22,496 bases of DNA. Source: a virus (lineage: Duplodnaviria > Heunggongvirae > Uroviricota > Caudoviricetes). The notes beneath the pieces are model-generated. The model saw nothing but the letters and a program-made list of their open reading frames with translations. It ran no database searches and had not been told where the DNA came from. A program made the translations under genes and the position numbers. Positions 3,530-21,500 of this stretch are shown piece by piece. The DNA is taken from IMG/VR virus record IMGVR_UViG_3300000301_000103. One strand, written 5' to 3'. Within the stretch, counting starts at the first letter, position 1. Every line of letters starts with the position of its first letter.

Positions 3530-3548
3530 ATAAGTAGGAACCTATTAG
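3530..3548 (+). promoter_or_regulatory. Recurrent imperfect palindrome site 1 (ATAAGTAGG-AA-CCTATTAG)
   Basis: Member of a six-copy intergenic motif family (half-site about ATAGGTA / TACCTAT); overlaps a possible TTGATA-16 nt-TATAAG promoter. Confidence 0.4.
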
Positions 3549-3549
3549 A

Positions 3550-3981
3550 GTGAACACTGATATTTTTTCTAAAATCATGGCCGATCTGGAGTTCGACCGC
3601 GACAACCTTGAGGAAGTATGGCGTAAACAGCCACGGCTTTTAATGGAGTATGGGTCAAAACTAGCGCAGGCAGATCGAGATGTCGCAGAGGCAAAACTTA
3701 ACCTTGAAGCTGTTGAAGCAAAGCTATACGACACAGAGCGTAAGAACTTGAGTATGAACGGCATTAAGTTCAACGAGTCTGTACTGGACGCTAAGGTTAA
3801 AACAAACCCACAGTATCTGTCTAAACGGCAGAAGTTGGATGAAGCACGGCACATCGCAGACATATACAAACATGCTGTCGCCGCCTTTTCGCATCGCAGA
3901 GACATGATCGTTCAGGCGTCAAAGATGGCCATCGTTGAATTAGAGCGATTAGGCTCTGAACGCTTTATTACTCCCCGTTGA
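3550..3981 (+). CDS. Hypothetical protein, possibly a UvsY-like recombination mediator (143 aa)
   Basis: GTG start 9 nt after AGGAA. Size and scattered residue pattern (e.g. SVLDAKVKTNPQY) resemble T4 UvsY as I recall it; this is a weak by-eye similarity. Confidence 0.5.
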   Translation: MNTDIFSKIMADLEFDRDNLEEVWRKQPRLLMEYGSKLAQADRDVAEAKLNLEAVEAKLYDTERKNLSMNGIKFNESVLDAKVKTNPQYLSKRQKLDEARHIADIYKHAVAAFSHRRDMIVQASKMAIVELERLGSERFITPR

Positions 3982-3994
3982 TTTTTGATAGATA

Positions 3995-4016
3995 ATAAGT
4001 AAGTACTGATCTATCA
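3995..4016 (+). promoter_or_regulatory. Recurrent imperfect palindrome site 2 (ATAAGTAAGTACTGATCTATCA)
   Basis: Same motif family, 83 nt upstream of the SSB start codon. Confidence 0.4.
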
Positions 4017-4098
4017 TTTAACAGCTCGAAAGAGCCACGAATGAACGAAAGCCCAACGCGCATAGCGCCATCGGCCAAATCACAACAAGGAGAAACAC

Positions 4099-5203
4099 AT
4101 GTCTAAGACATTACTTGATTTGCTTAACAAAACTCGTGAAGACATTGCCGCCAAACGTGGCAACAACGTTGATCTGACTCGCTTAAAAGACGGCGTCAAC
4201 TATATCCGCATCTTCCCGAATAAAGACGACCCAAACGGTAAGTTCTTCCAGACTTTCGGTATGCACTACGTTAAGTATCAGAACGAGGAAGGTAAAGAAG
4301 CAACCAACGCTTATATTTGTGAGCAACATACTCACGGTCGCGCTTGTCAGCTATGCGAAATGGTGATGGAAGGTCGCGCTCGTCACAAGGGTAACAAAGC
4401 AATGGAAGAACGCATCGGTCAAATGCGTGCCACTCCTCGCTACCTGGTCAACGGCATTCTTTCTGCTCGTGAGGATTTCGCAGATGCTGAGAAATGCCAG
4501 TTAATCGAGCTGCCGTCTACTGTATTCGATGATATCTGCAAAGCAATCACCGAAGACATCGCTGATGATATCGGCAATCCACTGAGCAAAGAGGAAGGCT
4601 ACGCATTCCTGATTAAACGTACTGGCTCTGGTCGCGATACCAAATATGACGTCTCGCCTAAGCGTAAAGTCTACAAAGGCGATATCGAAGATAAATTCTG
4701 GAACACCCAGCATGATCTGATCGCATACGCAAATCAGGCTGATGAAACTCGTCTTCTGTCGACAGTTCGCACTATGGGTCGTCTGATTGGCATCGCTGCA
4801 CCAACTGCCGCAGCATCTGCACCAGCAATTTCCTCAACCGCGAAAACATCGGCTGCGGCACTACCTGGATTTGGCTCTGTCACTGGTCATACAGAAGGAG
4901 CGACGGCTGTAGCAACCGCGCACACACCGGCTTCTGAACCAACCAGTCTGGTTGATGAAGAAATCCTCCGTGCCGTTGAAACTGAATTTAAACCAGAGGC
5001 AAGTTCCGCTGCCGTTGCCGTATCAGTCAAAGAGTCTGAAGCAGTCGCAGCGACATCTGTAGCAACCGCATCTGCGACGGAAGATNNNNNNNNNNNNNNN
5101 NNNNNNNNNNNNNNNNNNNNNNNNNNNNNNNNNNNNNNNNNNNNNNNNNNNNNNNNNNNNNNNNNNNCTGGATGACCTACTGAGAGAGCTGGACTCTCTG
5201 TAA
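4099..5203 (+). CDS. Single-stranded DNA-binding protein, T4 gp32-like (zinc-binding), with Ala/Ser/Thr-rich linker and acidic tail
   Basis: ATG preceded by AAGGAG; YIRIFPNKDDPNGKFF resembles the gp32 N-terminal region; Cys-x3-His-x5-Cys-x2-Cys (CEQHTHGRACQLC) fits the gp32 zinc site pattern. After N-run 5086-5167 the tail LDDLLRELDSL ends at TAA 5201-5203 in a different frame. Confidence 0.7.
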
Positions 5204-5219
5204 TCCCATTACGTGACCA

Positions 5220-5250
5220 GTAAGGCGTCTACGGACGCCTTACTTTTTGG
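5220..5250 (+). terminator. Rho-independent terminator (GTAAGGCGTC-TACG-GACGCCTTAC + TTTTT)
   Basis: Perfect 10-bp stem, 4-nt loop and T5 run 17 nt after the SSB stop. It lies inside the ORF-track ORF 5213.., which argues for the later FEN start. Confidence 0.7.
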
Positions 5251-5263
5251 AAGGAATGTACCG

Positions 5264-6363
5264 GTGAATTATCTCTTCGTAGATGGCAATAGCCTGGGCT
5301 ATTACCACCAACAATCTGACAAATTGCACAACGGCGAAATGGAAGTACAGGCTGCTTTCGGCTTTGTTANNNNNNNNNNNNNNNNNNNNNNNNNNNNNNN
5401 NNNNNNNNNNNNNNNNNNNNNNNNNNNNNNNNNNNNNNNNNNNNNNNNNNNNNNNNNNCGTTATGCCTCCATCCTCCATGCCCGGCCTATGATTCTTTGG
5501 GATGGATTTAGTGACAAGCGTCGCGACTTTTACCCGGACTACAAAGCAAATCGCGACGACGATCCTGATATGAAAAAGATGAAGGAAGGCTTTGCTATCC
5601 AGAAGCCATACATCCTCAAAATGATGACCGCGCTTGGAGTTACCCAACTCATTGCAAAAGATGCAGAAGCGGATGATCTGGCCGGGCTGCTGGTATCCCG
5701 CATGGCACCGCAGCCAACCGTTGAACACATCTATCTGTTAACAGGCGATAGCGACTGGCTTCAGTTAGTTCGTGAAAACGTAAGCTGGGTAAGCCTGCGT
5801 GAAGACGCCAAAAACAAGCAGGTTAATTTTGAGCAATTTGCGGAGCTGACAGGATTCGCCACGCCTCGCGCATTTTTGGAAGCAAAAGCATTACAAGGCG
5901 ATAAATCGGACAACATTAGCGGTGTTGGTGGCATTGGTGCTGGCGGTGCGAAAGAGCTGCTGCATGNNNNNNNNNNNNNNNNNNNNNNNNNNNNNNNNNN
6001 NNNNNNNNNNNNNNNNNNNNNNNNNNNNNNNNNNNNNNNNNNNNNNNNNNNNNNNNNNCAACGATGGTACGCGGCATCAACGACGGCTCAATCGTGGTTG
6101 ACAAAGGACGCCATAAGACCGCCTTCAACAAACTAGCGAAGAATGCCTTCAACGAGAAAACAGGCTGTCGAATGCTCGAAGCGTTCAAGAGAAACATCAC
6201 GCTAATGAACCTGATTGAGACGAAGTTTCCGCCTACCGAAATCGAAACAATCAAAGGCAATCGTGACGTGAAAGCATTCGAGCAACTGTGCTACGAGCTG
6301 AATTTCCGTTCGTTCCTTGAAGACCTTGAAGTGTTTGTTCTTCCATTCGAAAGGTATTGCTAA
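5264..6363 (+). CDS. 5'-3' exonuclease / flap endonuclease (T4 RNase H / T5 D15 family)
   Basis: GTG start 8 nt after AAGGA gives MNYLFVDGNSLGYY. Motifs YKANRDD, EADDLAGLL, TGDSDWLQLV and H3TH GDKSDNISGVGGIG are present. N-runs 5370-5458 and 5967-6058 interrupt it; the frame changes after the second; stop TAA 6361-6363. Confidence 0.8.
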
Positions 6364-6704
6364 TGCTTAAATCGATTATTAATGGCGCTACAACCACCCC
6401 CACCCAACTGGCAAAAGAGATTGTCTTTTATCACGGTGAGTACGCTGTCATCGCACTGCCGTCAATTCTAGGCGCTGCCGGAATGAAAGCGACAGATCGC
6501 GAGTTTGGATTAGTCAGCGAGCAGGTCGTAAAAATCCTCGCTCGTGTATCCAGACTCCTTAATCACGATGCGATTGTATTCGACGAATCCGCCGCTTTAA
6601 NNNNNNNNNNNNNNNNNNNNNNNNNNNNNNNNNNNNNNNNNNNNNNNNNNNNNNNNNNNNNNNNNNNNNNNNNNNNNNNNATCAACGAAACAAAAGGAGC
6701 CTGA
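6363..6704 (+). CDS. Hypothetical protein (about 110 aa, C-terminus uncertain because of N-run 6601-6680)
   Basis: ATG overlaps the FEN stop (TAATG), preceded by GAAAGG; no recognisable motifs. Confidence 0.45.
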   Translation: MLKSIINGATTTPTQLAKEIVFYHGEYAVIALPSILGAAGMKATDREFGLVSEQVVKILARVSRLLNHDAIVFDESAALXXXXXXXXXXXXXXXXXXXXXXXXXXXINETKGA

Positions 6705-6706
6705 TC

Positions 6707-9437
6707 ATGGCAAAAGGAAAATCCGCACTGGCACTTGCTCTGAAAAAGAAAATCGGTAGCAACGACGAAATTCAGAAAGTAACTCATTGGATTGACACAG
6801 GCTTTCCTCCGTTAAACAAAGCTATTTCCGGTCGTTACGATGGCGGTTTCCCATGTGGTCGTATCGTAGAAGTATTCGGGCCACCAAGCGCGGGGAAATG
6901 TGTTACCGCAGACACCATGCTGCTGACGGAGCGTGGAATGGTAACAGTGAAAGAGTTGTTTGAGATTGAAGGGTACAAAGCGACATGCACTACTCGCGAT
7001 GTAGAGCATAACGTTGGACTCATCAATGAAAATGGCGTGATAGAGAAGACCTCACACCTGACATGGAACAACCGTCGCAAATTCAAGCGTATTAAGCTGG
7101 CATCAGGCGGTTATATCGAGGCTACGTTCCGTCACCCAATCCGTGTGGTTGACGACTTAGGTAATGTCGTCTGGCGACATGCTGAAAAAATCAGTGTAGG
7201 CGACACGATTCCTTCAATGGTTGGCACACATCAATTCGGCGATCAGCACCTGGATGCCAATATCGCAAAACTGATGGGCTATTTAATTGCTGACGGATAC
7301 GTGGCCTCTGAAAATTCAGTGAATTTTTCTAACACAGATCCTTTCATCAAGGATGAGTACTACCGCCTCATTTCGCTGGTATCAGACAAGATGCCAGTTG
7401 CGAGAAAACATAACGGCTCGGAAGACCATGTGCTGTTTAGCAAAGAGGTGCGTTCGCTGCTTTTTAAAGAATATGGTCTGGAGTATGAGAAAGCTGCTGG
7501 CAAGCAGGTTCCGTTGAGTGTGCGTCGCGCCAATAGCGAGGCTCAAATTGCATTCCTTCGCGGCTACTTTGAGCTGGAATGCCACGTCAATGATGGTCGC
7601 TGCATTGAGGTTGTGAGCGCGAGTGGGCTGCTGCTACAGCAAATTCGCCTCATGCTCCTGAATCTGGGGATTACGTCAACTATCTCTGAAAAACACGTCG
7701 CGGGTTATGAAAATACATATTACCGGCTGTCATTCAGTGGCTCTAATTACGACCTTTTTCTGTCAACGATTGGTTTCGAATCTCCGGCACGTTTATCAGT
7801 GGCAACCAAACGGGACATTGGTTTTGACCGCACTTACTCAGGCTATGTTCCGCACATCAGCGGCTTAGTGAAATCACTCNNNNNNNNNNNNNNNNNNNNN
7901 NNNNNNNNNNNNNNNNNNNNNNNNNNNNNNNNNNNNNNNNNNNNNNNNNNNNNNNNNNNNNNNNNNNNNNNNNNCACCCGTGAAGACTACGCTCTGGTAG
8001 ACCACGTTATTGGCCGCGGCGATCGTGTCGGAATAGACAAACTGCGAGAAATCTATGTCTCCTTCATTGGCAGAAAGAATCGTTTTAACGAGCATCTGTT
8101 TGCACAACTGGCAGCGGTAATTGGCTCTAACTTGTTCTACGACGAAGTCGTGGCTATTGAGGAAGGTGAAGCACCAACGTTCGACGTAGCGATGCCGGAA
8201 ACACACTCNNNNNNNNNNNNNNNNNNNNNNNNNNNNNNNNNNNNNNNNNNNNNNNNNNNNNNNNNNNNNNNNNNNNNNNNNNNNNNNNNNNNNNNNNNNN
8301 NNNNNNNNGCCACAACACATTCCTTGCAACAGCAGCGATGATCTCCGCTCAAAAACAAGATGGTCTGGCGGTATTCCTCGATCATGAAAACAGTTTTGAC
8401 GTTGGCCTGGCTGCAGCCAATGGCCTGAACGCAGATGAGGATGACGGTCAGTGGGTATACAAGCANNNNNNNNNNNNNNNNNNNNNNNNNNNNNNNNNNN
8501 NNNNNNNNNNNNNNNNNNNNNNNNNNNNNNNNNNNNNNNNNNNNNNNNNNNNNNNNNNNNNNNNNNNNNNNNNNNNNNNNNNNNNNNNNNNNNNNNNNNN
8601 NNNNNNNNNNNNNNNNNNNNNNNNNNNNNNNNNNNNNNNNATCGTGGCTGACTCTCTTGCGTCTATGGTTCCGAACTCCAAAGCCGAGAAGTTCGAAAAG
8701 ATGGCTGAAGGCACAGCCAAAGACAAAGATCAGCTAAACATGAACGACAATACGGCACTGGCTCGTGCGACGAGNNNNNNNNNNNNNNNNNNNNNNNNNN
8801 NNNNNNNNNNNNNNNNNNNNNNNNNNNNNNNNNNNNNNNNNNNNNNNNNNNNNNNNNNNNNNNNNNNNNNNNNNNNNNNNNNNNNCACGCAAATACAACG
8901 CCTGCATCATCTTCTTGAATCAGGTTCGCACAAAAATCGGTGTAATGTTTGGCGACCCTACTACGTCGCCAGGTGGAGATTCACCGAAGTTCTACGCTTC
9001 TGTACGTATCCGTCTTGGTGCATCGGTGATGAAGGATGGTAAAGAGAAGATCGGCCAGGACGTAGGCGCAGAATGCATCAAAAACAAAGTTGCACCACCG
9101 TATGGCAAATGCACCTGGAAATTCTACTTCGATCCTACTCGTGGCCTCGACGTTATCGAGTCGCTCGTCGAGTACATGCTGGAAGAAGGATACCTGCCAA
9201 AGAACGCCAGCGGTCGAGTAGAAATTGGTGACAAGAAATACACCAAATCACAAATCGTCGAGATGTATCGGGAGAAGCCACNNNNNNNNNNNNNNNNNNN
9301 NNNNNNNNNNNNNNNNNNNNNNNNNNNNNNNNNNNNNNNNNNNNNNNNNNNNNNNNNNNNNNNNNNNNNNNGCGGCTTTACAGGCAATCGACGACCGGAG
9401 ATCAAAAGACAATCCCACCGAGTCAGTAGAAGAGTAA
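6707..9437 (+). CDS. recA: RecA-family recombinase interrupted by an intein
   Basis: ATG preceded by AAAGGAG. Walker A GPPSAGK is followed directly by an intein; C-extein has IIFLNQVRTKIGVMFGDPTTSPGGDSPKFYASVRIRL, the RecA core signature. Four N-runs lie inside the gene and frames shift across three; stop TAA 9435-9437. Confidence 0.8.
6899..8316 (+). other. Intein with LAGLIDADG homing-endonuclease domain, inserted in the RecA P-loop
   Basis: Starts with Cys right after GPPSAGK (CVTADTMLL, block A); TxxH block B (EATFRHP); LAGLIDADG-like LMGYLIADGY and IAFLRGYFELE; block F-like TFDVAMPETH; ends HN followed by Thr (cac aac aca at 8311-8319). N-runs 7880-7974 and 8209-8308 lie inside. Confidence 0.7.
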
Positions 9438-9441
9438 ACAC

Positions 9442-9468
9442 AAGGCGTCCACAGGACGCCTTTTTTAT
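9442..9468 (+). terminator. Rho-independent terminator (AAGGCGTCC-ACA-GGACGCCTT + TTTTAT)
   Basis: 9-bp perfect stem and T-run 5 nt after the recA stop. Confidence 0.7.
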
Positions 9469-9480
9469 CTCTTGAAAATA

Positions 9481-9500
9481 TATAAGTGCTTACTTATCAT
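9481..9500 (+). promoter_or_regulatory. Recurrent imperfect palindrome site 3 (ATAAGT-GCTT-ACTTAT); also fits TTGAAA-17 nt-TATCAT
   Basis: Inverted hexamers ATAAGT/ACTTAT; TTGAAA at 9472-9477 and TATCAT at 9495-9500 are spaced 17 nt. Confidence 0.45.
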
Positions 9501-9529
9501 TTTCACATAACAACCACATAGGAAAACAC

Positions 9530-9730: not shown

Positions 9731-9733
9731 GTA

Positions 9734-10643: not shown

Positions 10644-10659
10644 CTCCCCTAAAAAGTTC

Positions 10660-10688
10660 AGGCGTCCAGTTGGACGCCTTTTTTATCG
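10660..10688 (+). terminator. Rho-independent terminator (AGGCGTCC-AGTT-GGACGCCT + TTTTTTATC)
   Basis: 8-bp perfect stem and T6 run 17 nt after the SPFH stop; same stem sequence as the terminator at 9442. Confidence 0.7.
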
Positions 10689-11238: not shown

Positions 11239-11293
11239 TCGCCTATTCATAACTAACAAAATAAGTAAACACTAACCACAAAAGGAAAAACAC

Positions 11294-11569
11294 ATGAGAG
11301 TTTTAGTTCGAATCGTTACCAGCACTGTCTATGACGTGTTTCCACTTTTTATGATCAAAGTCGATGGCCTTAACGACGAAGAAACTGACGCGCTGATCCA
11401 GCGTACTCTTGTTGAATATACAGGTCATGACGCTGATTCAGTGATGGTTGATGATGATGGTGTTTGTTGGCATAACGGCAACTGTTGGTACGTAGAAGAG
11501 ACTCAACAAATCAGTGATGAAGATGCCGCACATCTTGAGCGTATTTTAAGCATCAGCACTTTTGAGTGA
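11294..11569 (+). CDS. Hypothetical acidic protein (91 aa)
   Basis: ATG preceded by the conserved AAAAGGAAAAACAC leader; no recognisable motifs. Confidence 0.55.
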   Translation: MRVLVRIVTSTVYDVFPLFMIKVDGLNDEETDALIQRTLVEYTGHDADSVMVDDDGVCWHNGNCWYVEETQQISDEDAAHLERILSISTFE

Positions 11570-11587
11570 GTTTACAGTAAAATTTAT

Positions 11588-11609
11588 ATAAGTTAGTATC
11601 TACCTATCA
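11588..11609 (+). promoter_or_regulatory. Recurrent imperfect palindrome site 4 (ATAAGTTAGTATCTACCTATCA)
   Basis: Same motif family, in the intergenic region after the 11569 stop. Confidence 0.4.
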
Positions 11610-11788
11610 TGAAGATTTTTATTGAATACTTGTTACTCATCGTTTCAATAGCTTTTGTCATCGACTGCATTTTCACCGGTGTCATTCGTAAAGTCTTTTC
11701 CCCGGTGAACGACGTAGTCATAAACGCTTTGGCTATCGTGCTCGTATTTAATTCAGCATTTGATGTAATCAAAGAGGTGGCAGCATGA
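11609..11788 (+). CDS. Possible small hydrophobic membrane protein (59 aa)
   Basis: ORF MKIFIEYLLLIVSIAFVIDCIF..., stop overlaps the next ATG (ATGA); no Shine-Dalgarno and the start sits inside the palindrome motif, so it may not be translated. Confidence 0.25.
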   Translation: MKIFIEYLLLIVSIAFVIDCIFTGVIRKVFSPVNDVVINALAIVLVFNSAFDVIKEVAA

Positions 11789-12120
11789 AGGCCATCCCAT
11801 TCGCTCTGTTGTTCCTTTCCTCGATCGTTGTGGCCGACACCACTGTTTATCAGTGTGAAATGTCTGTAGCCGACGTTAAGAATGGCGCTCTTACCGACGT
11901 CATAAAAGCACCATATGGAGCGATGGTCGTAGACAGCGGCGACCAGTTCTATGTTGTGCGTGACGATCGAGTGTTGTCATCCCCATATCTCACAAATCGT
12001 AATGGCAAATTAACCGGCGTCGGAGAAGACCACTTCGTATACAACAAATACAAGGGCTTCTATGGCGTTCACGCTTCTCAGCAAAGCTACCTTTTCGATG
12101 ACTGCAAGGAGGTTGGATAA
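11785..12120 (+). CDS. Secreted or periplasmic hypothetical protein (111 aa) with N-terminal signal peptide
   Basis: ATG preceded by AGAGGTGG; signal-peptide-like N-terminus MKAIPFALLFLSSIVVA. Confidence 0.6.
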   Translation: MKAIPFALLFLSSIVVADTTVYQCEMSVADVKNGALTDVIKAPYGAMVVDSGDQFYVVRDDRVLSSPYLTNRNGKLTGVGEDHFVYNKYKGFYGVHASQQSYLFDDCKEVG

Positions 12121-12332
12121 TGGCATTAACACTGGCAGGTCTGGAAATCGAGAAAACAAGCGGCTACTGGCGTGCTAAGGGTTTCAAGCAGCCTGGCATT
12201 CTTGAGCGTCTGGAACGTGAAGATGGGTATATCGTCCACCAGCGGCGTGAATGGCGTATGTACGATCCAGAAACAGGAAAACTGACTACAAAAGCCGGAA
12301 CACTTTGGGGCCTGTTGAAGAAAATACACTAA
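12120..12332 (+). CDS. Hypothetical basic protein (70 aa)
   Basis: ATG overlaps the upstream stop (TAATG), preceded by AAGGAGG. Confidence 0.5.
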   Translation: MALTLAGLEIEKTSGYWRAKGFKQPGILERLEREDGYIVHQRREWRMYDPETGKLTTKAGTLWGLLKKIH

Positions 12333-12342
12333 TAGCACCAAC

Positions 12343-12820
12343 CACTGCGGTGAGTAGCCAGCTCACCGCATTCGTATCAGCTCATTATCCACTGTGGTCT
12401 GCAGTCCTCTCTTCCTACATATCTGCTAACCACTGTAGCGAGTAGACAGCCTTTCATTCGCATCAAACAACCACTATGGTGAGTATTGGAGTGAGATGTC
12501 CAGCGGGTATCCACTATGGTGAGTAAGCCTTTGCTGTTTTCAGTGGATATCCACTCGCCACAGTGGATACGCTCAAAGATGAGGGCGACAACAACCACTA
12601 TAGACAGTAAATTTTCCAAGATACCCAGTGACCACTAACCTCGCAGCCCTTGTTTCATCAGTGTTAGTGATCACTAACATTTGATTCAGTATTTGCATTC
12701 TACTGCCTACAGTGGTTATCAACAGATAACGATACTCACTATAGTGGATAGCGAATTACAGATATAAGTAAGGCTCACTACAGTGGATAGTGAGCCTTAC
12801 TACTAACTACAGTGGTTGGG
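12343..12820. repeat. Iteron-like array downstream of repA: about 12 sites with core CCACT(A/G)T(A/G)G / CTA(T/C)AGTGG in both orientations, plus perfect palindromes
   Basis: CCACTATGGTGAGTA at 12471 and 12511; variants at 12343, 12430, 12595; CACTATAGTGGATAG at 12736; CACTACAGTGGATAG at 12777; palindromes GTGGATATCCAC (12543-12554) and GTTAGTGATCACTAAC (12663-12678). Confidence 0.7.
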
Positions 12821-13876
12821 CTATTTGCGAGTCTTTGCCTTGCGCAACTCTTCGAGAAGCGCCAGTTCTTCTTTACTCAACATGACCATTTTGCCTTCTT
12901 TTTCGTCAGGCACAACGTCGATAATGTCATCTTGATTCTCATCTGGGAGGCTATATTCCGTCTCATCATTATCGATTTTTGTTGATATTTGTGCCTGGCG
13001 TAACTTTGGCCGCCTATAGTGGATGACGAAGTAGACCGAGTTTCCGCGCTTAACTTCCGTGTAATCGAGATATCCTATCTCTCGCAGCTGTTCCATAGCC
13101 TTTCTTACCGTCGCATTCTGAGTAATAGTGCGACTTGTCAGATTAAGTCTGGCGCGTAAACGGGCTAGTGATATTGGTGCCGGATCAGGCGGCAAACTTT
13201 CAATAAAAGTATAAAGCGCCTGAGCGGATTCTTTTCTTGAGAGTTCGTTTATAGCCCGGAGTTGCAGAAGAACCTTTTTGTCGAACTGGTAGAGTTCGAA
13301 AATCTTGGGATCTGCTTTCAGTTCGACCGTATCGTGCTTGACACTATATTTTGCCGTTTGCACAAGATGCGTTACGTAAAACTCATCAGAGCCTTTGCTA
13401 CGGAACGAGATGGTATTTGTGGCAATACGGCTTAGCGAACTGTCCAGGCGTTTGCGTAACTTCGCTGATGACCTGGCGGTCGGAATGCCACACAGCCTTA
13501 CAAACTCAACGAACGGCAACGTGACAGTATCGCCAACGACCTTGTGTTTGGCAAACGCGTGGATTATTCCCACCCACGTTTTAAAGTCGTTATCCATATC
13601 AAGCCGAAGGCCAGAGATCCTTATGTCTTCGTACCCTTCGGCTTTTGCCAGAGACAGCTGTTTGAGTTCAGCAGAGGCATCCATAGAGACCATTTGCCCC
13701 TTTCTTCCTCTGGATGTCGATTTCAGCGTCGGAACGAAGAGGCCCAGACGCATCAAAGCAACAGGCTGAACAGTGTTATTAGTGTTAGGAACCAACGTAA
13801 CAACTTCGCCTGTCTTTTTATCTGTTTCTGAAAATGCTTCAACGATCGCTATGTTTTTATTGCCGTTTTCGCTCAT
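12821..13876 (-). CDS. repA: Plasmid-type replication initiator RepA (iteron-binding, Rep_3 / RepFIB / P1 RepA-like)
   Basis: 351-aa minus-strand ORF flanked on both sides by iteron arrays; two winged-helix-like halves and general resemblance to RepE/RepA initiators as I recall them. The ATG at 13874-13876 has only a weak Shine-Dalgarno. Confidence 0.75.
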
Positions 13877-13921
13877 TCCAAATGTCTCTTGTTATTCGAC
13901 GGCTTTGGTGGCCTTTGCTGA

Positions 13922-14036
13922 TTACAGTGGATAGTAGCACTCATCACAGCGGTTATCCTACCGTCTATAGTGGTTTTTCTCCTCTCTATAGTGGTTGCTT
14001 TGCTCCCTATAGTGGATTATTCGCTCTCTATAGTGG
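13922..14036. repeat. Iteron cluster A: six direct repeats (core CTATAGTGG) at 21-22 bp spacing, immediately upstream of repA
   Basis: Core 9-mers start at 13922, 13944, 13965, 13986, 14007 and 14028; the last four are exact CTATAGTGG. Confidence 0.8.
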
Positions 14037-14040
14037 ATAT

Positions 14041-14320
14041 CGATCATGTCTGAAGGCAGATGGCGCAACGGTTTGAGGTGGGCGGGGATCTTATTGGGTC
14101 TTTATGGGTCTCTTTGGTTCTCTTTGTGATCTGAATTACTGGATCGGGCCTGTGGATAAAATCAGAGGATTTCAAGAACAGGTAACTCTACTCTTCTGTG
14201 GATATTTAAGGACATAAGAATCATGACTAAGAGTAGAGTTTAAAATATATCTATGTATATCAGTATGTTAATGAAGAATTAAGTCATTAAGTTATCCATA
14301 AAAGACAATGTGCTCTACTC
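14041..14320. other. Putative origin spacer: degenerate GATC/GGTC block (14081-14145) and AT-rich segment containing a 12-bp inverted repeat (14184-14195 / 14229-14240)
   Basis: The block resembles the GATC cluster at 14464-14517 but with GGGTC/GGTTC in place of several GATC; AACTCTACTCTT and AAGAGTAGAGTT are exact reverse complements; 14200-14300 is AT-rich. Confidence 0.4.
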
Positions 14321-14321
14321 T

Positions 14322-14416
14322 CTACAGTGGATATATACAGCTCTCCAGAGTGGTTGTTTTACTCTTCATAGCGGTTATTCAGCTCTCTACAGAGGTTTCT
14401 TTGCTCTCCATAGTGG
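14322..14416. repeat. Iteron cluster B: five degenerate direct repeats (CTACAGTGG, CCAGAGTGG, TCATAGCGG, CTACAGAGG, CCATAGTGG) at about 21 bp spacing
   Basis: Repeat starts at 14322, 14343, 14366, 14387, 14408, same orientation as cluster A. Confidence 0.7.
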
Positions 14417-14463
14417 ATGGCAACACCCTTTCAGACCAGTAACCGCAACGGCTAGAGGCGATC

Positions 14464-14517
14464 GGGGATCTCTTTGGATCTTCTATTTGATCTTACTTGG
14501 GATCTCTTATTTGGATC
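14464..14517. promoter_or_regulatory. Cluster of five GATC sites at roughly helical-turn spacing (possible Dam-methylation-sensitive origin element)
   Basis: GATC at 14467, 14477, 14489, 14501 and 14514 within TTGGATCT-like repeats. Confidence 0.5.
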
Positions 14518-14618
14518 TATCCAGTGGATAACTGGGATAAGTAAAACAGGCAAATGCAGATTAAGGTATGCCTAATGAGTTATCGTAGCATCGGCCAATA
14601 ACTACTGAAAAAACGATT

Positions 14619-15263: not shown

Positions 15264-15338
15264 ACGTAATCTCAGGGTTTAACCGAGGCATAAAATATGG
15301 TGCATTAGAAAGACACTGAGGGCTTTTAGGATTAATAC

Positions 15339-15851: not shown

Positions 15852-15875
15852 AAAAAGCACCCCATACGAGGTGCT
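15845..15875 (-). terminator. Minus-strand rho-independent terminator (AGCACC-loop-GGTGCT with T-run on the minus strand)
   Basis: Plus strand reads AAAATAAAAAGCACC CCATACGA GGTGCT; on the minus strand the stem is followed by TTTTTATTTTGG, 10 nt after the lipoprotein stop. Confidence 0.55.
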
Positions 15876-15884
15876 CCTGAAGAA

Positions 15885-16388
15885 TTAATCACAAGTCGTT
15901 TTGCCCGTGCCGTCTGGGTACACGATTGATTCGCACGACTTGCCATTCAAGAAGCTGTAGCTGCGAATAGTACCGTCCGGATCGCGTTCTGTGTAAGACT
16001 CCAGCTTCTTCGGATCAGCGTTCTTACGGCGCACTTCTTTCAGCTCATATTGGGCCTTGTACATCTCCTTGTAGGCTTCCTCTATGCGTTTCATTTTGAT
16101 CTCCTTTGCCTCTTTGCTGCCCAGATAAGCGGCCATTTCAAGATCACAGTTGAACCTGATTTTTGGGAATGAAGGCGCGTATCTACCCATGACTTTGGTT
16201 AAATCATTGTCGTTAGAGACATAATAGGCATGGCTTCCACACAATTTGTCGGCTCTGTCTTGGGCAATTGCTACGCTTGAAGTGGAGTAAATATCAACGT
16301 ACCCGCCAGCTGACTTTTCATCTTGAGGTGGTTTTGGTACGCATCCGATCAGAGCAATGGCCATCGTCCCTATAATTACGCGTTTCAC
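15885..16388 (-). CDS. Lipoprotein (167 aa), function unknown
   Basis: GTG start (plus 16386-16388) 7 nt after AAGGAG; N-terminus MKRVIIGTMAIALIGC carries lipobox LIGC. Confidence 0.65.
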   Translation of the reverse strand: MKRVIIGTMAIALIGCVPKPPQDEKSAGGYVDIYSTSSVAIAQDRADKLCGSHAYYVSNDNDLTKVMGRYAPSFPKIRFNCDLEMAAYLGSKEAKEIKMKRIEEAYKEMYKAQYELKEVRRKNADPKKLESYTERDPDGTIRSYSFLNGKSCESIVYPDGTGKTTCD

Positions 16389-16481
16389 CGTCAGTTCTCC
16401 TTTTTCGTTTGGTTGTCATCATTAAGTGACTGCGATTATAGAGTGGCTTGTAACATCTAGAAGTCTTTGCTGTCCATAAAA

Positions 16482-16501
16482 ATAGGTATTCACTTACCTA
16501 T
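16482..16501 (+). promoter_or_regulatory. Recurrent imperfect palindrome site 5 (ATAGGTA-TTCACT-TACCTAT, perfect 7-bp arms)
   Basis: Exact inverted 7-mers, about 110 nt upstream of sbcD in the divergent intergenic region. Confidence 0.45.
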
Positions 16502-16614
16502 GAATTTGCCATAATCATGTGTCTGTGAACATTCTTAATGGCCGTGTTATCTGGATTGTTCGCCTCTCAAACACACTTAATATCTGTATCAAAATAACCA
16601 CAAAGGAAAAACAC

Positions 16615-17886
16615 ATGACTTTGCCATACGGCGTCATTTCTGACTGCCACTACCACAAATGGGATGCGTTCTCCACGACGAACGCTGAGGGGCTTAACTC
16701 CAGACTTGAAATACAGTTGGAAGCAACGAAAGAAGCAGCCATCGCCATGAAGAAGGCCGGTTGTAAGTACATGTTGGTTGCCGGTGATACATTTCACGTC
16801 CGAGGAACTGTGTCCCCTTCTGTTTTGCATTACGTAACTGAAACGTACAAGTGGATTATCAACGAGCTTGATCTGACAGTAGTAATGCTGGCCGGTAATC
16901 ACGATCTTGAAACCAACGATTCAGTATATAGCGCCAACGCAGCAGCATCGCTGAGTTCTATCGGCGTGGTAATCGTATGTGGCAAACGCCCACACTCAAT
17001 AAAAATTGGTGATGTGACTGTCCACCTGATTAGCTGGCGTAACAATCATGCGGAGCTTATCAGCGATCTGAAAGCATTACGTAAGAGCGTAGAAGGTGAT
17101 AATCATGACGTTGTTATCCATACATCCATTAACAAAGCCATTCCAACAATGCCTGACGTCGGTATCGATGCGCAGGAGTTAAAGGATATCGGCTTTCGTC
17201 TCGTGCTTAGTGGGCATTACCACAACCACAAAGAGGTCATTCCTGGAGTTATCAGTGTCGGTGCGCTGACCCATCAAAATTGGGGAGATGTTGGATCTCT
17301 GGCTGGTTACATGATCGTAAACCCGGACGGCAGTTTCAGTCACTACGAAACCAGTGCGCCTAAATTCATTAACCTGGAAGATTATGTTGCCGATGACCAA
17401 ATTCGCGGCAACTACGTGCGTTTCCGCGCCGTAATTGAGAACGATGAAGAAGGCATTAAGTACCAGAACATCCTCAAAACAATGGGTGCAAAAGGTGTCG
17501 TGTGCAACTTCATCCGTAAGTCATCAATGATGGAAGGGACAGCAAGCACAACGGAAACCAGCAAAATCGATAGCCTGGGAGAGTCGGTATCTGCTTATTG
17601 CAAGATTGTCCACGATACTGACGGCGGATTTGATCTGAGCAAGTTGGATATTTTGTGTCAGGAAATCCTCACNNNNNNNNNNNNNNNNNNNNNNNNNNNN
17701 NNNNNNNNNNNNNNNNNNNNNNNNNNNNNNNNNNNNNNNNNNNNNNNNNNNNNNNNNNNNNNNNNNNNNNNNNNNNNNNNNNNNNNNNNNNNNNNNNNNN
17801 NNNNNNNNNNNNNNNNNNNNNNNNNNNNNNNNNNNNNNNNNNNNNNNNNNNNNNNNNNNNNNNNNNNNNNNAAGGAAATCCCGTAG
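16615..17886 (+). CDS. sbcD: SbcD/Mre11-family nuclease (calcineurin-like phosphoesterase)
   Basis: ATG preceded by AAAGGAAAAACAC; phosphoesterase motifs DCHYH, GDTFH, GNHD and GHYHNH. N-run 17673-17871 hides the C-terminal region; the end is either TAG 17884-17886 or, in another frame, TGA 18006-18008 overlapping the sbcC start. Confidence 0.8.
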   Translation: MTLPYGVISDCHYHKWDAFSTTNAEGLNSRLEIQLEATKEAAIAMKKAGCKYMLVAGDTFHVRGTVSPSVLHYVTETYKWIINELDLTVVMLAGNHDLETNDSVYSANAAASLSSIGVVIVCGKRPHSIKIGDVTVHLISWRNNHAELISDLKALRKSVEGDNHDVVIHTSINKAIPTMPDVGIDAQELKDIGFRLVLSGHYHNHKEVIPGVISVGALTHQNWGDVGSLAGYMIVNPDGSFSHYETSAPKFINLEDYVADDQIRGNYVRFRAVIENDEEGIKYQNILKTMGAKGVVCNFIRKSSMMEGTASTTETSKIDSLGESVSAYCKIVHDTDGGFDLSKLDILCQEILXXXXXXXXXXXXXXXXXXXXXXXXXXXXXXXXXXXXXXXXXXXXXXXXXXXXXXXXXXXXXXXXXXXKEIP

Positions 17887-18004
17887 CGTTTTATCTTGGA
17901 AGGTTAACCAGAAAAGGCGTATTGAGGCGCAGATCCTTCCCGGCGCATACGGAGTTCAGATTGAAAGAAGGTCAAAAGCTAACACACGGTATCAAAGGTG
18001 TTAT

Positions 18005-19921
18005 ATGAAGTTTTTAAAGCTCCAGGTTGAGAATTTTATGGCTATCGCCAGCGCGGAGGTCGAGTTAGATCAGCGTGGTTTAGTGCTCATTCAGGGTGTT
18101 AATAGTGATGATAGTTCCGCATCAAGTAATGGCTCTGGAAAGTCAACGCTAATGAATAGCCTGATGTGGTGTCTTTATGGCGAAACAGCTCATGGTGTGA
18201 AGGGTGACGATGTGTTGTCTACCGACCATGAAAAGAACTGTCGTGTTGCAGTAACCATCGAGGATGAAGGCAAGAGATATGCGATCATTCGTCACCGTAA
18301 ACACAAAGAGTTCAAAAATCGGCTTATCGTTCGTGGTGAAGACGGCGATATGACGAAAGGCAAAGATGCGCTGACGCAAGAGTTCGTCGAGCGTCTGATC
18401 GGTGCATCTAAAGAGGTTTTCATGGCTTCCATCTATGCGAGCCAAGAAGCTATGCCAGATTTACCTGGAATGTCCGACAAAAACCTCAAAACCATCGTAG
18501 AAGAAGCCGCTGGCGTTGACAGACTGACACGCGCCTACGCTATTGCTCGTGAGCGAGCTAATGCAGCTGCCGCACGTATGGATGTGGTTAAAACCAAATT
18601 GGAGTCGACAATCTCGACCATTGAGGCAACACAGTCAGAAATTGAGTCAGCGAAAGCCTCCTCTGAATCATGGGAGCAAGAGCGTTCTAAACGTTATGAC
18701 GATGCCCTGGCTGGGCTGGCCAGTGCCGAAGTTGAGTTAACGGAAGTTGAACTTGAGATCCGCACTCTTCCCGAACAGATCCGTGATACCGAGAAGGCAA
18801 TCGAAAGTGAGCGCAAAAAGTTAGCCTCAAAAGAAGAACATGACGCCAAGTTGCTCAAAGTTCGTGGTGCGATAACTGATATTCGGGCAAGCATCAAAGC
18901 TACAGAAAATAGTCAGGCTGATGCAATGAACCGCGCGCGTAATTTTAAGACCAAAGCAGAAGAGGTTGGTACTAAAGTGGGATCACCATGCCCTACTTGT
19001 GGCAAAGCCTACTGCGAAGAAGATCTATCAACGGTGAAGGAGAATTTCATTGAACAAGCACGTCAGGAAATTGGTCAGGCGAAGACACTTGCAGAGGCAA
19101 TGGCTAAACACAAAACGAATCTTGAGAAAGCGTTAAGCATTGAGTCTGCCCTTGTTAAAACGACACCTGATGTAACGGCTATCATTGCCCGGATTGAAGA
19201 GCTTACGAAACAACTCTCATCTTTGCGTCATCGTGAGAAGGAGGTTGTTGCTATTGAGTCTCTTGTGACTCGTGCTCGTACTGAGGTCGATCGTATATCA
19301 AAAGAGATTAATCCGTTTATTGCTCTTATCGCCAGACACGAAGATAACCTGGTATCCAGTAAGTCTACCTTCAAGTCCTTAAAAGATGAGTTGAAGGCTA
19401 TTCAGGAACAAACGTTGCTATTGGAAAAAGCTCGTCAGGTCTACTCTCCTGCCGGGGTGCGTTCTCATATTTTGACGTCTGTTACGCCTTTCCTGAATAC
19501 ACGCACTGCCGAGTATCTCAATACGTTGTCTGACGGGAATATTACTGCTGAGTGGTCGACGATGGATGTCACTAAAAAAGGTGAGTATCGCGACAAATTC
19601 AACATTAGTGTGCAGAAGAAAGGTTCAAGTAAGTCGTTCCAGACCCTCTCTGGTGGTGAGAAGCGGAAGGTTCGCATTGCGTGTTCTTTGGCATTGCAGG
19701 ATCTGGTTAGTAACCGGGCGAGTAAAAACATCGATTTGTTTATCGGCGACGAAATTGACGATGCACTCGATACAGCCGGTCTTGAACGCCTCATGGGTAT
19801 TCTGGAGTCCAAAGCTCGCGAGCGAGGTACTGTGCTGATTATCTCCCATAAAGAGATGAAGTCATGGTTCCGGGAAACTATTACGCTGGAAGTTAAAGAG
19901 GGGCGCAGCTATGTCGTTTAA
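18005..19921 (+). CDS. sbcC: SbcC/Rad50-family ATPase (638 aa)
   Basis: Walker A GSGKST, long coiled-coil, zinc-hook CPTCGKAYC, signature LSGGEKRKV, Walker B/D-loop LFIGDEIDDALD, H-loop ISHK. Confidence 0.85.
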   Translation: MKFLKLQVENFMAIASAEVELDQRGLVLIQGVNSDDSSASSNGSGKSTLMNSLMWCLYGETAHGVKGDDVLSTDHEKNCRVAVTIEDEGKRYAIIRHRKHKEFKNRLIVRGEDGDMTKGKDALTQEFVERLIGASKEVFMASIYASQEAMPDLPGMSDKNLKTIVEEAAGVDRLTRAYAIARERANAAAARMDVVKTKLESTISTIEATQSEIESAKASSESWEQERSKRYDDALAGLASAEVELTEVELEIRTLPEQIRDTEKAIESERKKLASKEEHDAKLLKVRGAITDIRASIKATENSQADAMNRARNFKTKAEEVGTKVGSPCPTCGKAYCEEDLSTVKENFIEQARQEIGQAKTLAEAMAKHKTNLEKALSIESALVKTTPDVTAIIARIEELTKQLSSLRHREKEVVAIESLVTRARTEVDRISKEINPFIALIARHEDNLVSSKSTFKSLKDELKAIQEQTLLLEKARQVYSPAGVRSHILTSVTPFLNTRTAEYLNTLSDGNITAEWSTMDVTKKGEYRDKFNISVQKKGSSKSFQTLSGGEKRKVRIACSLALQDLVSNRASKNIDLFIGDEIDDALDTAGLERLMGILESKARERGTVLIISHKEMKSWFRETITLEVKEGRSYVV

Positions 19922-20734
19922 ATTAAGCCGCTCGCAGTTTTTGCAGGTATTTGCAGTGATGCAGTCGATAAAACTGATCAATGGGCATACTTCCAATGGN
20001 NNNNNNNNNNNNNNNNNNNNNNNNNNNNNNNNNNNNNNNNNNNNNNNNNNNNNNNNNNNNNNNNNNNNNNNNNNNNNNNNNNNNNNNCACGTATTCTGTG
20101 GGGCAGCAACAATATTGACGGAGTACAATTCGCCGCGTTGCTTGGTCTAATATCCGAGACGCCATTGATGCAAAGTTTGAAATCACTACCACCTGGATGT
20201 ATTGCGCCGATCCTGATTAATCCTTTTGTTGAGGGGGGATATCTTCCCAACGTCGGGCCTGGGTTTATTGCATCCCATGAAACTGAAGATCTTAACATTA
20301 ATAGCGAAGGGTTCTTTGGGGGTATGGGTGCGCATCACTGTATGGCTTTCACGAACCTTATTCGACTTGCCAATAAGCGGGTGGATAGTTTGGCATCGCC
20401 AGGTGATGCTTTTACTGGTTTCCTTATCCAAAGGAGGGATAAAAAGTACAGTGCGGACAAACTACAGTTTGTTGGTAAGTATGGAGAAATGGTAGAAATC
20501 GAACTTCAGCTCCCGCATGTTTTAGCAAACGATAGTGCAGACAGTCGGAGGCTGTTGGGCATCATGCGTCATTTCATAGCAAGTGGCGTTAAACATGCCG
20601 TAGATAAACGTGTCACGCAGGAAAATGAGTATTCAGACTTTGCAAACTCTCCCCAACCAACGTTGCAAACGGCAATAGTAACCAATTCGTTGGAGGCGAG
20701 ATTATTGGAAAACCCTATATGGGGAACATGGTAA
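19911..20734 (+). CDS. Hypothetical protein overlapping the sbcC stop (about 270 aa; N-run 19990-20087 inside, frame differs across it)
   Basis: ATG 19911 preceded by AAGAGGGG; after the gap the frame reaching TAA 20732-20734 is open from the gap edge. Whether this is one gene is unproven. Confidence 0.45.
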
Positions 20735-20743
20735 GGAGACTAT

Positions 20744-21470
20744 ATGAGTAAAAAAATCAGCGTAGTTGGTGTTGATCCCTCAATGAGCAACTTTGGGCTT
20801 GCTGTGGGCACTTTAGACCTTGAGACGGACGAACTTGAGATTCACGGCCTTACTCTTGTTGAGACTAAAGCGGGGAGTAACAAAAAGACCGTTCGTGTGA
20901 ACAGTGACGATCTGCGCCGAGCCAGTGAANNNNNNNNNNNNNNNNNNNNNNNNNNNNNNNNNNNNNNNNNNNNNNNNNNNNNNNNNNNNNNNNNNNNNNN
21001 NNNNNNNNNNNNNNNNNNNNNNNNNNNNNNNNNNNNNNNNNNNNNNNNNNNNNTTGTGAGCTACCGGTTGGGAGCCAAAACTCTCGTTCGCAGACGTCTT
21101 ACGGTATTTGTATCGGTGTACTTGCGTGTGTGGATAAGCCATTGATCCAGGTTACTCCAAACGAAATCAAGCATTTTGTCGGCAATAAACTTACTACATC
21201 GAAAGAAGAGATTATCCAGTGGGCTACGAAAAAACACCCTAAAGCACNNNNNNNNNNNNNNNNNNNNNNNNNNNNNNNNNNNNNNNNNNNNNNNNNNNNN
21301 NNNNNNNNNNNNNNNNNNNNNNNNNNNNNNNNNNNNNNNNNNNNNNNNNNNNACAGGATGTTCTCGTGAACAAAAACGAACATTTGGCTGATGCGGTGGC
21401 TGCCATCCATACCGGTATGCAAACAGATCAGTTCCGCCAGGTGCGCGATGTTCTTAAGTCTCTCATTTGA
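20744..21470 (+). CDS. RuvC-like Holliday junction resolvase
   Basis: ATG 5 nt after AAGGAG; N-terminus KISVVGVDPSMSNFGLAV resembles the RuvC start; EIKHFVGNK and C-terminal ADAVAAIH fit RuvC motifs. N-runs 20930-21053 and 21248-21352 interrupt it with frame changes. Confidence 0.6.
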
Positions 21471-21477
21471 TTTCATT

Positions 21478-21500
21478 GATAGGTAAGTGCTTATCTATTA
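21478..21500 (+). promoter_or_regulatory. Recurrent imperfect palindrome site 6 (GATAGGTAAG-TG-CTTATCTATTA)
   Basis: Same motif family, between the ruvC-like stop and the nrdA start. Confidence 0.4.

Follow-up and report, generated by a model that had tools for sequence, protein, structure and literature searches.

What is the short inverted repeat that recurs upstream of plus-strand genes in a 22.5-kb stretch of viral DNA (IMG/VR record IMGVR_UViG_3300000301_000103; this whole stretch is hereafter referred to as the window), which genes does it serve, and which protein would recognize it? The window shares 98% identity with Escherichia phage Cyrano (OV696614), which resides in E. coli LF82 as an SSU5-like phage-plasmid, and ~80% with Salmonella phage SSU5; on sequence comparison, it is likewise an SSU5-like phage-plasmid. 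SSU5-related elements constitute the largest supercommunity of phage-plasmids (PMC7969092). The first part of the window contains the end of the PolIII-alpha gene, a hicAB pair, and UvsY-like, gp32-like SSB, exonuclease and RecA-like genes, and the second part a membrane/SPFH pair, several small genes, repA and iterons, sbcDC, ruvC and the start of nrdA; 19 masked runs of N are scattered through it. We read the repeat, with moderate confidence, as the operator for a repressor that governs lysogeny globally in phage-plasmids of the SSU5/pHCM2/pMT1 family.

The comparative analysis included the complete assembled and annotated genome of Cyrano, an assembly of most of SSU5, the assembly of a distant Providencia plasmid, loci of 13–21 kb from Yersinia, Kluyvera, Buttiauxella, Morganella and Xenorhabdus, and loci of ~40 kb from Klebsiella and Acinetobacter. 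Relatives of the window sbcD gene were identified in 1019 PLSDB plasmids, distributed among Klebsiella, E. coli, Enterobacter, Salmonella (pHCM2), Y. pestis (pMT1) and Acinetobacter. Sites were scored with a symmetrised weight matrix trained on the Cyrano sites, to which all bit scores refer.

A 20-bp palindrome recurs upstream of lytic genes

The repeated unit is a 20-bp palindrome, ATAGGTAAGT|ACTTACCTAT, which spans 24 bp when its TG..CA flanks are included. An earlier note on the window, made from the letters alone, had described six sites sharing inverted half-sites. The shared inverted repeat and the positions of all six sequences stand, and five of the six are strong copies; the 16-bp register adopted for the first and third sites does not stand, and stems from the 4-bp internal periodicity (TAGG TAAG T) of the palindrome. 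The degenerate pattern ATARGT-N10-YTAT, with at most one mismatch, has 13 matches in the window against 3.7 expected, a number reached by none of 100 dinucleotide shuffles, and five sites score at least 12 bits where 0.05 would be expected. All five are intergenic and lie 5' of plus-strand genes.

The first strong predicted operator copy, ATAAGTAAGTACTGATCTAT (3995–4014; 25.3 bits), is located 84 bp upstream of the gp32-like SSB gene (start 4099) and is kept in SSU5, Klebsiella and Xenorhabdus. The second, ATATATAAGTGCTTACTTAT (23.0 bits), lies 5' of the membrane-protein/SPFH pair (start 9530); it had been placed at 9481–9500, but its best placement is 9478–9497. A third predicted copy, ATAAGTTAGTATCTACCTAT (11588–11607; 23.3 bits), ends 1 nt before the ATG at 11609. 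The fourth, ATAGGTATTCACTTACCTAT (16482–16501; 25.0 bits), has perfect 7-bp arms and occupies the divergent region upstream of sbcD, where a promoter search gave no convincing promoter; this site is kept in SSU5, Yersinia, Kluyvera and Buttiauxella, and a related site is found ~50 bp 5' of the Xenorhabdus sbcD start. The fifth, ATAGGTAAGTGCTTATCTAT (21479–21498; 27.5 bits), lies upstream of nrdA. An additional, weak predicted copy, ATAAGTAAACACTAACCACA (11261–11280; 8.6 bits), precedes the gene at 11294, with a Shine-Dalgarno sequence directly after it, and the orthologous site reaches 20–22 bits in SSU5, Kluyvera, Buttiauxella and Yersinia. The remaining site of the earlier note, ATAAGTAGGAACCTAT (3530–3545), upstream of the uvsY-like gene, proved to be a degenerate 16-bp variant in which four central bp are missing and which scores below 8 bits in the 20-bp register. 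It is a doubtful member of the set: in SSU5 only its left half is conserved, not the palindrome, and a full site is present upstream of the uvsY-like gene in the more distant relatives Xenorhabdus and Providencia. A match at 2089–2108 falls inside a cspA-like 5' untranslated region (UTR) and is probably due to chance.

Across the Cyrano genome, seven matches to the 20-mer consensus (at most three mismatches) compare with 0.00 expected from dinucleotide-preserving shuffles. At a threshold of at least 15 matching positions out of 20 there are 31 matches (1–4 in shuffles), of which 30 are intergenic though 87% of the genome is coding; this was the genome-wide scan for coding versus intergenic placement that the earlier note had proposed as a check, and it came out in favor of an intergenic element. 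We estimate the copy number in Cyrano at about 25–30, with ~97% of copies intergenic. The SSU5 genome holds 22 sites of at least 12 bits, at orthologous positions, where shuffles yield 0–1.

The Cyrano sites precede the ssb, SPFH-pair, sbcD, nrdA, portal, Ig-like head, major tail and tail gene L genes, as well as the tail fibre and holin genes, a helicase operon, cobS, thyX, dam genes and others; the site preceding the scaffold and capsid genes is located inside the end of the portal gene. The accessory region of Cyrano (85–100 kb) and the maintenance genes expressed in the lysogen have no sites, except for a copy at 105107 before a ParB-like gene. The replication/recombination regulon envisaged in the earlier note is therefore represented among the targets but too narrow, since structural, lysis, dam and thyX genes are preceded by sites as well, and the regulon is essentially the whole lytic programme.

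Sites at orthologous positions were found in SSU5, Y. pestis, Kluyvera, Klebsiella, Xenorhabdus, Morganella and Providencia, with a variant, ATTAGTAAGYRCTTAYTWAT, in Acinetobacter. The Klebsiella elements retain the full consensus, and in Morganella, Xenorhabdus and Providencia, whose SbcD is 57% identical, the arms TAGGTA..TACCTA are kept at the same junctions. Between Cyrano and the SSU5 group, the 20 bp of the motif are 90–98% identical, compared with 35–66% for the 20 bp on either side.

The information profile of the palindrome is symmetric through its centre (G9 T10 A11 C12) and into its flanks, where the TG before mirrors the CA after, and the mismatched pairs on the coding strand (24 G:T, 19 A:C and 25 other) reveal no wobble bias. 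Because of this symmetry through centre and flanks, and of the lack of a G-U bias, the palindrome is most likely a double-stranded DNA site for a symmetric protein and not an RNA hairpin. The proposal of a binding site for a dimeric regulator is supported by this symmetry, by the sharp island of conservation and by the lack of any sign of selection for RNA structure.

Relation of the sites to promoters and terminators

Overlap with a promoter is clear at window sites 9478, 11588 and 21479, as well as at Cyrano sites 3527 and 9018, and weak at window site 3995. At the first of these, the predicted promoter of the membrane-protein/SPFH pair, TTGAAA-17-TATCAT (9472–9500; −35 at 9472–9477, −10 at 9495–9500; 10/12 match), is of sigma-70 type. 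Its −35 directly adjoins the palindrome, whose first 17 bp form the spacer and which also covers the first half of the −10, placing the start of the −10 at motif position 18. The promoter TTGAAA-17-TATGAT at Cyrano 3527 has the same register, and in the promoter TTGAAT-18-TATACT at Cyrano 9018 the −10 begins at motif position 12. In the window promoter TTTACA (11571–11576)-17-TAGTAT (11594–11599) the −10 begins at motif position 7; here site 11588 covers both the −10 and the predicted start site, the −35 is kept in relatives, and the relative positions of site and promoter would make the mRNA of the 11609 gene nearly leaderless. For the nrdA promoter, TTGATA (21476–21481)-17-TAACAT (21499–21504), the −10 begins at motif position 21; in Morganella and Xenorhabdus the nrdA site adopts another register, with TTGATA, the first 17 bp of the palindrome as spacer, and then TATCAT. 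The weak case is TAGATA (3989–3994)-17-TATCAT (4012–4017), overlapping site 3995.

The inconsistent spacing to −35/−10 hexamers reported in the earlier note is thus borne out, with the −10 beginning at motif position 7, 12, 18 or 21, and a single sigma-70 register common to all sites was looked for and not found. The suggestion of a non-sigma70 promoter element was not upheld, as the recognisable promoters are ordinary sigma-70-type pairs that overlap the palindrome at differing registers. With a sigma-70 scoring matrix based on approximate textbook frequencies, the best promoter scores of the two strands were compared, and the gene strand had the higher one in 16 of 24 cases (p=0.025); this comparison provides an internal control because the palindrome contributes equally to both strands. 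Promoter-like matches overall in the window equal chance (24 vs 25.7), and the promoter evidence consists of the strand asymmetry and the individual conserved cases. Some sites lie 1–15 bp from a start codon, immediately before the ribosome-binding site.

Two hairpins adjoin sites in the window. An intrinsic terminator hairpin on the plus strand (9442–9462) ends the recA-like unit directly 5' of the 9472 promoter and is kept in relatives; the order terminator, −35, operator at this locus is kept in six of them. A GC-rich hairpin followed by a T-run (21505–21526, plus strand) stands directly after the nrdA operator/promoter and is kept in SSU5, Kluyvera and Yersinia. It may be a terminator of the upstream unit or a leader attenuator needing antitermination, the latter suggested by the low level of nrdA under SOS stress despite a good promoter. 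Similar hairpins are found in Cyrano after operator copies behind the capsid, tail M, tail J and Tc1 genes.

Expression of the genes behind the sites

Per-gene RNA sequencing (RNA-seq) values for Cyrano in LF82 are available in S1 Table of PMC9928086 (data set GSE154648). In lysogeny broth (LB), the lytic genes behind the sites are near the floor (mean 3.3 log2 against a floor of 2.32), and the expressed genes include the toxin-antitoxin genes, repA, parA, CYRAN_43, CYRAN_45 and CYRAN_117 (PMC9928086 S1 Table). After 6 h in macrophages, an SOS-inducing condition, step-ups begin exactly behind the Cyrano sites 3527, 9018, 34730, 57446 and 59399, all of which have good sigma-70 matches, and involve CYRAN_4/5, 12/13, 34, 56/57 and 60–62. 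At site 3527, log2 values rise from 4.8 in the upstream gene to 6.0 in CYRAN_4 and 7.6 in CYRAN_5, and at site 9018 from 5.9 to 8.4 in CYRAN_12 and 7.6 in CYRAN_13. At site 57446, the counterpart of window site 9478, the upstream recA-like gene stands at 4.1, CYRAN_56 at 7.7 and CYRAN_57 at 7.3; at site 59399, the counterpart of window site 11588, the upstream gene stands at 5.0 and CYRAN_60–62 at 8.4–8.9. Before SOS stress, CYRAN_56/57 and CYRAN_60–62 start from about 2.3–3.7 log2.

More generally, the median expression step at gene junctions is 1.45 log2 with a site and 0.80 without (p=0.013). Several of the junctions with sites show step-downs, which are compatible with blocked elongation at promoter-less copies and which ordinary terminators fit equally well. 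The silence of these genes in the lysogen despite good −35 and −10 hexamers, together with the step-ups behind the sites, indicates that several sites are regulated promoters. The gene that follows site 11588, a 59-aa open reading frame (ORF; 11609–11788), begins 1 nt downstream of the operator and lacks a Shine-Dalgarno sequence. In macrophages, its orthologue in Cyrano and the next two genes, including one for a Cra-like protein, rank among the most induced lytic-strand genes.

A predicted lysogeny operator

In the mechanism that we propose, a symmetric (dimeric) protein would bind about 25–30 copies of TGATAGGTAAGT|ACTTACCTATCA across the ~105-kb element. Many copies would coincide with the spacer, the −10 or the start site of ordinary host sigma-70 promoters, and protein bound there would exclude RNA polymerase and leave the DNA-metabolism, structural and lysis genes silent in the plasmid state. 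At promoter-less copies near the next ribosome-binding site it would at most block elongation, in stoperator-like fashion, and SOS stress would relieve repression by some route. We infer both that the bound protein represses and that the promoter-less copies act as roadblocks. A repressor excluding RNA polymerase is favored over an activator because good core promoters are silent, because their register relative to the site varies, and because a core copy of the site lies at ~+1 of the promoter of a candidate regulator, described in the next section; a variable register fits a repressor, which works at any register, whereas activators need a fixed geometry.

A number of observations weigh against the operator reading. 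Whether the protein represses or activates, and which protein it is, are both predictions. The 20-bp operator is unchanged across lineages whose candidate repressors are 56–66% identical, which is unusual for immunity repressors; the operator of P1/P7 C1 is likewise unchanged between relatives. Cyrano counts obtained with the Cyrano-trained matrix are partly circular, those for SSU5 and the other genomes being independent. A convincing sigma-70 promoter is seen at about a third of the sites, and about half have no recognisable match; the copies at Cyrano 2020, 31296, 35607 and 72595 are of this kind and stand directly before a start codon (2–15 bp). At the holin gene, the centre of the site lies at ~−42.5 relative to a conserved extended −10 (TGaTATAAA), where activators classically bind. 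Finally, the RNA-seq values are at gene level and near the detection floor, induction is partial, some well-matched promoters (nrdA, ssb) show no rise under SOS stress, and no Cyrano virions were detected above background in the condition concerned (PMC9928086).

Candidate binding protein

The protein that binds the palindrome is encoded outside the window, and the most likely candidate is the XRE-type CYRAN_45, a 128-aa protein with a putative XRE-like helix-turn-helix, whose gene overlaps the end of the integrase gene ~10 kb upstream of the window. Candidates were filtered by presence in the Providencia element and then by expression in the lysogen. The first filter eliminated CYRAN_37, CYRAN_43, the Cra-like protein of the window (12120–12332) and the FljA-like CYRAN_114, all absent from the Providencia element, which keeps the motif. 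The second eliminated CYRAN_113, CYRAN_116, CYRAN_119, CYRAN_120 and CYRAN_123, which are silent in the lysogen, so that they cannot maintain repression, and which are possibly lytic-phase factors. This left CYRAN_45 and CYRAN_117.

In the lysogen, CYRAN_45 is expressed at 10x background. Homologues of it were counted in 995 PLSDB plasmids, whose spread over genera matches that of SbcD. Among related phage records carrying most of the window region, CYRAN_45 is missing from SSU5 alone, which is a free phage isolate; it is also missing from a shorter partial relative (84 kb). Comparison of SSU5 (42.5–42.8 kb) with Cyrano (39.5–43.1 kb) shows that the whole block comprising the integrase, the candidate repressor and a small divergent gene is missing in SSU5, and this block is kept in the plasmid-resident relatives that cover the region.

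A core copy of the palindrome, GGTAAGYRCTTACC, of the form GGTAAG(Y)(R)CTTACC, lies directly after the CYRAN_45 promoter (TTTACA-17-TAATAT) in E. coli, S. Typhi pHCM2 and Klebsiella, and in Acinetobacter two motif-like sites are present in the control region of the CYRAN_45 homologue. Were CYRAN_45 the binder, this weakened core operator at its promoter would give negative autoregulation. The predicted recognition helix, GYKNANNLSLIKSGKIPLP, does not differ between Cyrano and pHCM2, which share the operator and whose proteins have an overall identity of 66%; in Providencia, with its different operator centre, the helix has diverged. Since operator and recognition helix are shared, elements of different genera should be cross-immune.

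Homology searches place CYRAN_45 in PHROG 8, 'transcriptional regulator' (E=1.3e-11), and RefSeq names its homologues XRE-family or helix-turn-helix regulators. Its match to Pfam HTH_19 (E=7.8e-4, 19.7 bits) lies below the curated cut-off of 30.2, which counts against the assignment, and sequence searches of CYRAN_45, CYRAN_117 and CYRAN_123 against solved structures returned nothing informative and no solved relative of CYRAN_45. A further point against CYRAN_45 is that CYRAN_117, likewise conserved and expressed in the lysogen, belongs to an operon with a site in its control region. The N-terminal region of CYRAN_117 differs between Cyrano and SSU5 though their operators are identical, and we regard this protein as a possible second choice.

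A one-tier circuit, in which this single 128-aa XRE-type repressor silences the replication, recombination, nucleotide-metabolism, virion and lysis genes, with no late activator and with the promoter-less copies acting as symmetric stoperators, is a more demanding proposal that we advance only tentatively. If it were true, an operator/repressor pair would have been kept from Acinetobacter elements to Y. pestis pMT1 and S. Typhi pHCM2, with cross-immunity over a very wide host range.

Two LexA-box-like sequences are located in Cyrano at 41046–41061 and 89277–89292, outside the window. One, TACTGTTTACTTATACAGT, lies ~30 bp 5' of the integrase gene, and the other 5' of a UmuD-like gene; both genes rise 25–30-fold in macrophages, and transcription of the integrase gene is convergent into the 3' end of CYRAN_45. 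SOS-driven antisense transcription across CYRAN_45 is a possible route of induction.

Two of the eliminated candidates have features of their own. CYRAN_43 (Cyrano 40268–40822, minus strand; 184 aa) is the top prophage gene in LB, at ~7000 normalised counts or 723x background, and is absent from SSU5 as well as from the Providencia element. CYRAN_114 (Cyrano 100780–101301) is a full-length member of the FljA family (Flag1_repress, 'repressor of phase-1 flagellin') with a weak Hfq-like match, and may be a lysogenic-conversion factor acting on host flagellin mRNA.

Alternative explanations

The foremost alternative is that the palindrome is the box of a phage-encoded activator for middle or late promoters without a good −35, like the P1 −22 box (Lpa) or the T4 MotA box. 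Sites do precede DNA-metabolism and structural/lysis genes alike, as dispersed activator boxes would, the position of the holin site fits an activator, and deep conservation would be expected of promoter elements more than of immunity operators. A −35 is missing at many sites, and a −10 can be seeded by the TAT at positions 18–20 of the palindrome; yet the promoters that fire under stress do have good −35s (TTGAAA, TTGAAT, TTTACA) and should run unaided, and they are silent in the lysogen. The centre of the motif, AAGT|ACTT, resembles the P1 −22 box, AAGT-T-ACTT (P1 record). Among the five annotated P1 late promoters compared, the gap between box and −10 is 4 bp in four, whereas the stress-firing −10s here start at position 18, 12 or 7. 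An Lpa homologue was not detected either: the best E-values for P1 Lpa against all of Cyrano (BLASTP, phmmer and TBLASTN) were 0.02–0.17, and the scanned regulator candidates had no match to the Pfam (BPP1_LPA, PF25716) or PHROG Lpa models, which P1 Lpa itself hits. A P1-type late promoter was rejected on this basis, the AAGT/ACTT likeness of the half-sites being real and the fixed geometry and the activator being missing. With the core copy at ~+1 of the CYRAN_45 promoter, moreover, in a repressing position, we consider an activator box unlikely.

A role of the sites as loading or binding sites of the ParB-like CYRAN_119/120, be it as a KorB-type global regulator or as a partition or DNA-organising system, appears highly unlikely. 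KorB of plasmid RK2 binds 12 dispersed palindromic operators and offers a precedent, and the two proteins, which have ParB N-terminal domains with GxxRxxA boxes, are conserved in the family (44–69% identity in Providencia). Expression of both genes, however, does not exceed background in the lysogen (5.0 and 9.5 normalised counts; median 9.8), the state in which silencing would be needed, and no helix-turn-helix is evident after the N-terminal domain on reading the sequence. One site lies 17 bp 5' of the first ParB-like gene but is weak or absent in SSU5 and Providencia, and centromere sites are normally clustered and not at promoters.

It is still less probable that the motif acts as RNA, as an intercistronic mRNA hairpin serving as a processing site, stability element or translational operator. 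A possible partner would be CYRAN_114, whose FljA-family match is strong (Pfam Flag1_repress, E=1e-80), but the gene is missing from the Providencia element, where the motif is still present. Many copies lie 1–20 nt 5' of start codons on the coding strand, and some of them fold as hairpins of 7–10 bp (z-scores to −4.4); several sites are upstream of the predicted transcription start, and so not in the transcript of the gene, and the half-sites share one sequence consensus without co-variation. We rejected a hairpin or processing site on four further grounds: the four central bases are symmetric yet unable to pair in a hairpin, the near-equal numbers of G:T and A:C mismatches given above show no wobble bias, the strong site 11588 has no stable fold as RNA (−0.9 kcal/mol, z=+0.96), and an Rfam search matched no family at any site.

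That the motif is a selfish or compositional repeat, similar to repetitive extragenic palindromic (REP) sequences or miniature inverted-repeat transposable elements (MITEs), or a chance product of AT-rich intergenic DNA without regulatory role, has a negligible probability: it is a small palindromic repeat restricted to intergenic DNA, whose stop codons in two frames on both strands would exclude it from genes, but dinucleotide-preserving shuffles predict ~0 copies, orthologous copies persist across genera at the identities given above within diverged flanks, flanking repeats and target duplications are lacking, and the copies coincide with promoters and transcription-unit boundaries.

Relation to known regulatory systems

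The predicted lysogeny operator finds its counterparts in several known circuits. The C1 operators of phage P1 are 17-bp asymmetric sites of the ATTGCTCTAATAAATTT type, and the specificity of repressor and operator is conserved between P1 and P7. The site described here is instead a 20–24-bp palindrome, and the 128-aa XRE-type candidate is unrelated to the 283-aa C1. P1 late genes, moreover, are under Lpa-dependent promoters and not under C1, whereas here structural and lysis genes share the site of the early genes. The likeness lies in the arrangement, with a phage-plasmid in which one repressor acts on many scattered operators at sigma-70 promoters of ssb, DNA-metabolism and regulatory genes and of its own gene (P1 record). 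The P1 late promoters, for their part, also have a short palindromic AAGT/ACTT box beside the −10, before many late genes of a phage-plasmid; that −22 box, AAGTTACTT, has 9 bp with a central base, lies mostly 4 bp from the −10, has no accompanying −35 and is Lpa-dependent, in contrast to the varying distance to the −10, the several good −35s and the lack of an Lpa homologue observed here.

The gp71 stoperators of mycobacteriophages L5 and L1 number ~30 copies, in early and late regions and in short intergenic gaps; some are promoter-less, and there the bound repressor blocks elongation. Binding of multiple operators by mycobacteriophage repressors is documented (PMC1934351). The present palindrome resembles the L5/L1 stoperators in being one short site repeated many times (about 25–30 copies), typically in short intergenic gaps. 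It departs from them in its symmetry and in the overlap of at least a third of its copies with recognisable promoters; stoperators measure 13 bp, are not symmetric and depend on orientation, and the two systems have unrelated hosts and proteins. Work by Ingham et al. in 1994 (Nucleic Acids Res) reportedly described conserved inverted repeats (CIRs) of Streptomyces phage phiC31 in many intergenic copies genome-wide, one of them at the repressor gene, with autoregulation. The CIRs, bound by the c repressor, are likewise conserved inverted repeats in many intergenic copies, but their length is 17 bp, their repressor is large and made in multiple isoforms, phiC31 early promoters are of a type other than sigma-70, and the repeats are unrelated in sequence to the palindrome. 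In the KorA/KorB system of RK2 (IncP), plasmid-wide silencing is similarly exerted through palindromic operators at variable promoter positions. There, KorB, a CTP-dependent clamp of the ParB family, and KorA, a distinct small helix-turn-helix protein, have 12 and 7 sites, compared with about 25–30 here, where the ParB-like genes are silent in the lysogen.

Full-text literature searches with the motif sequence, for repeats, and for regulation in SSU5, pHCM2 and pMT1 returned no description of the motif or of the control of lysis versus maintenance. The kind of circuit is well known from P1 C1, L5 stoperators, phiC31 CIRs and RK2 Kor, and what is new is its occurrence in this widespread plasmid family. 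The circuit is conceptually ordinary; its value resides in breadth and testability, and not in surprise. A defined operator with a candidate repressor would provide a regulon map for annotating promoters and transcription units across the family, and a direct means to induce, cure or silence these plasmids, among which are carriers of resistance genes.

Other features of the window and of Cyrano

The recA-like region of the window (6357–9475) is split into several ORFs, and masked N runs hamper its reading. The Cyrano annotation gives a 779-aa RecA here, that of SSU5 a 358-aa recombinase and a small ORF; the difference points to a putative intein or homing-endonuclease insertion.

On the minus strand, positions 1793–2211 match the Rfam cspA thermoregulator over its full length (185.7 bits, model positions 1–428 of 428) and include a 70-aa CspA-family ORF, so that a cold-shock gene together with its regulatory 5' UTR is present on the phage-plasmid; the Cyrano counterpart (50264–51111) has no annotated gene.

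Iterons of ~20 bp, of the CTCTCTATAGTGGATA type, form two arrays (12337–12819 and 13914–14530) flanking repA (12821–13876, minus strand), partly with 21-bp spacing and with opposite orientation on either side of the gene. These arrays are the plasmid replication origin/control region and are unrelated to the 20-bp palindrome.

Outside the window, the sequence CCTGCTTCTGTATATA occurs in two copies in Cyrano (31160–31215 and 78085–78140), the first of which is part of a large inverted repeat, CCTGCTTCTGTATATA ... TATATACAGAAGCAGG, around an AT-rich, motif-like core.

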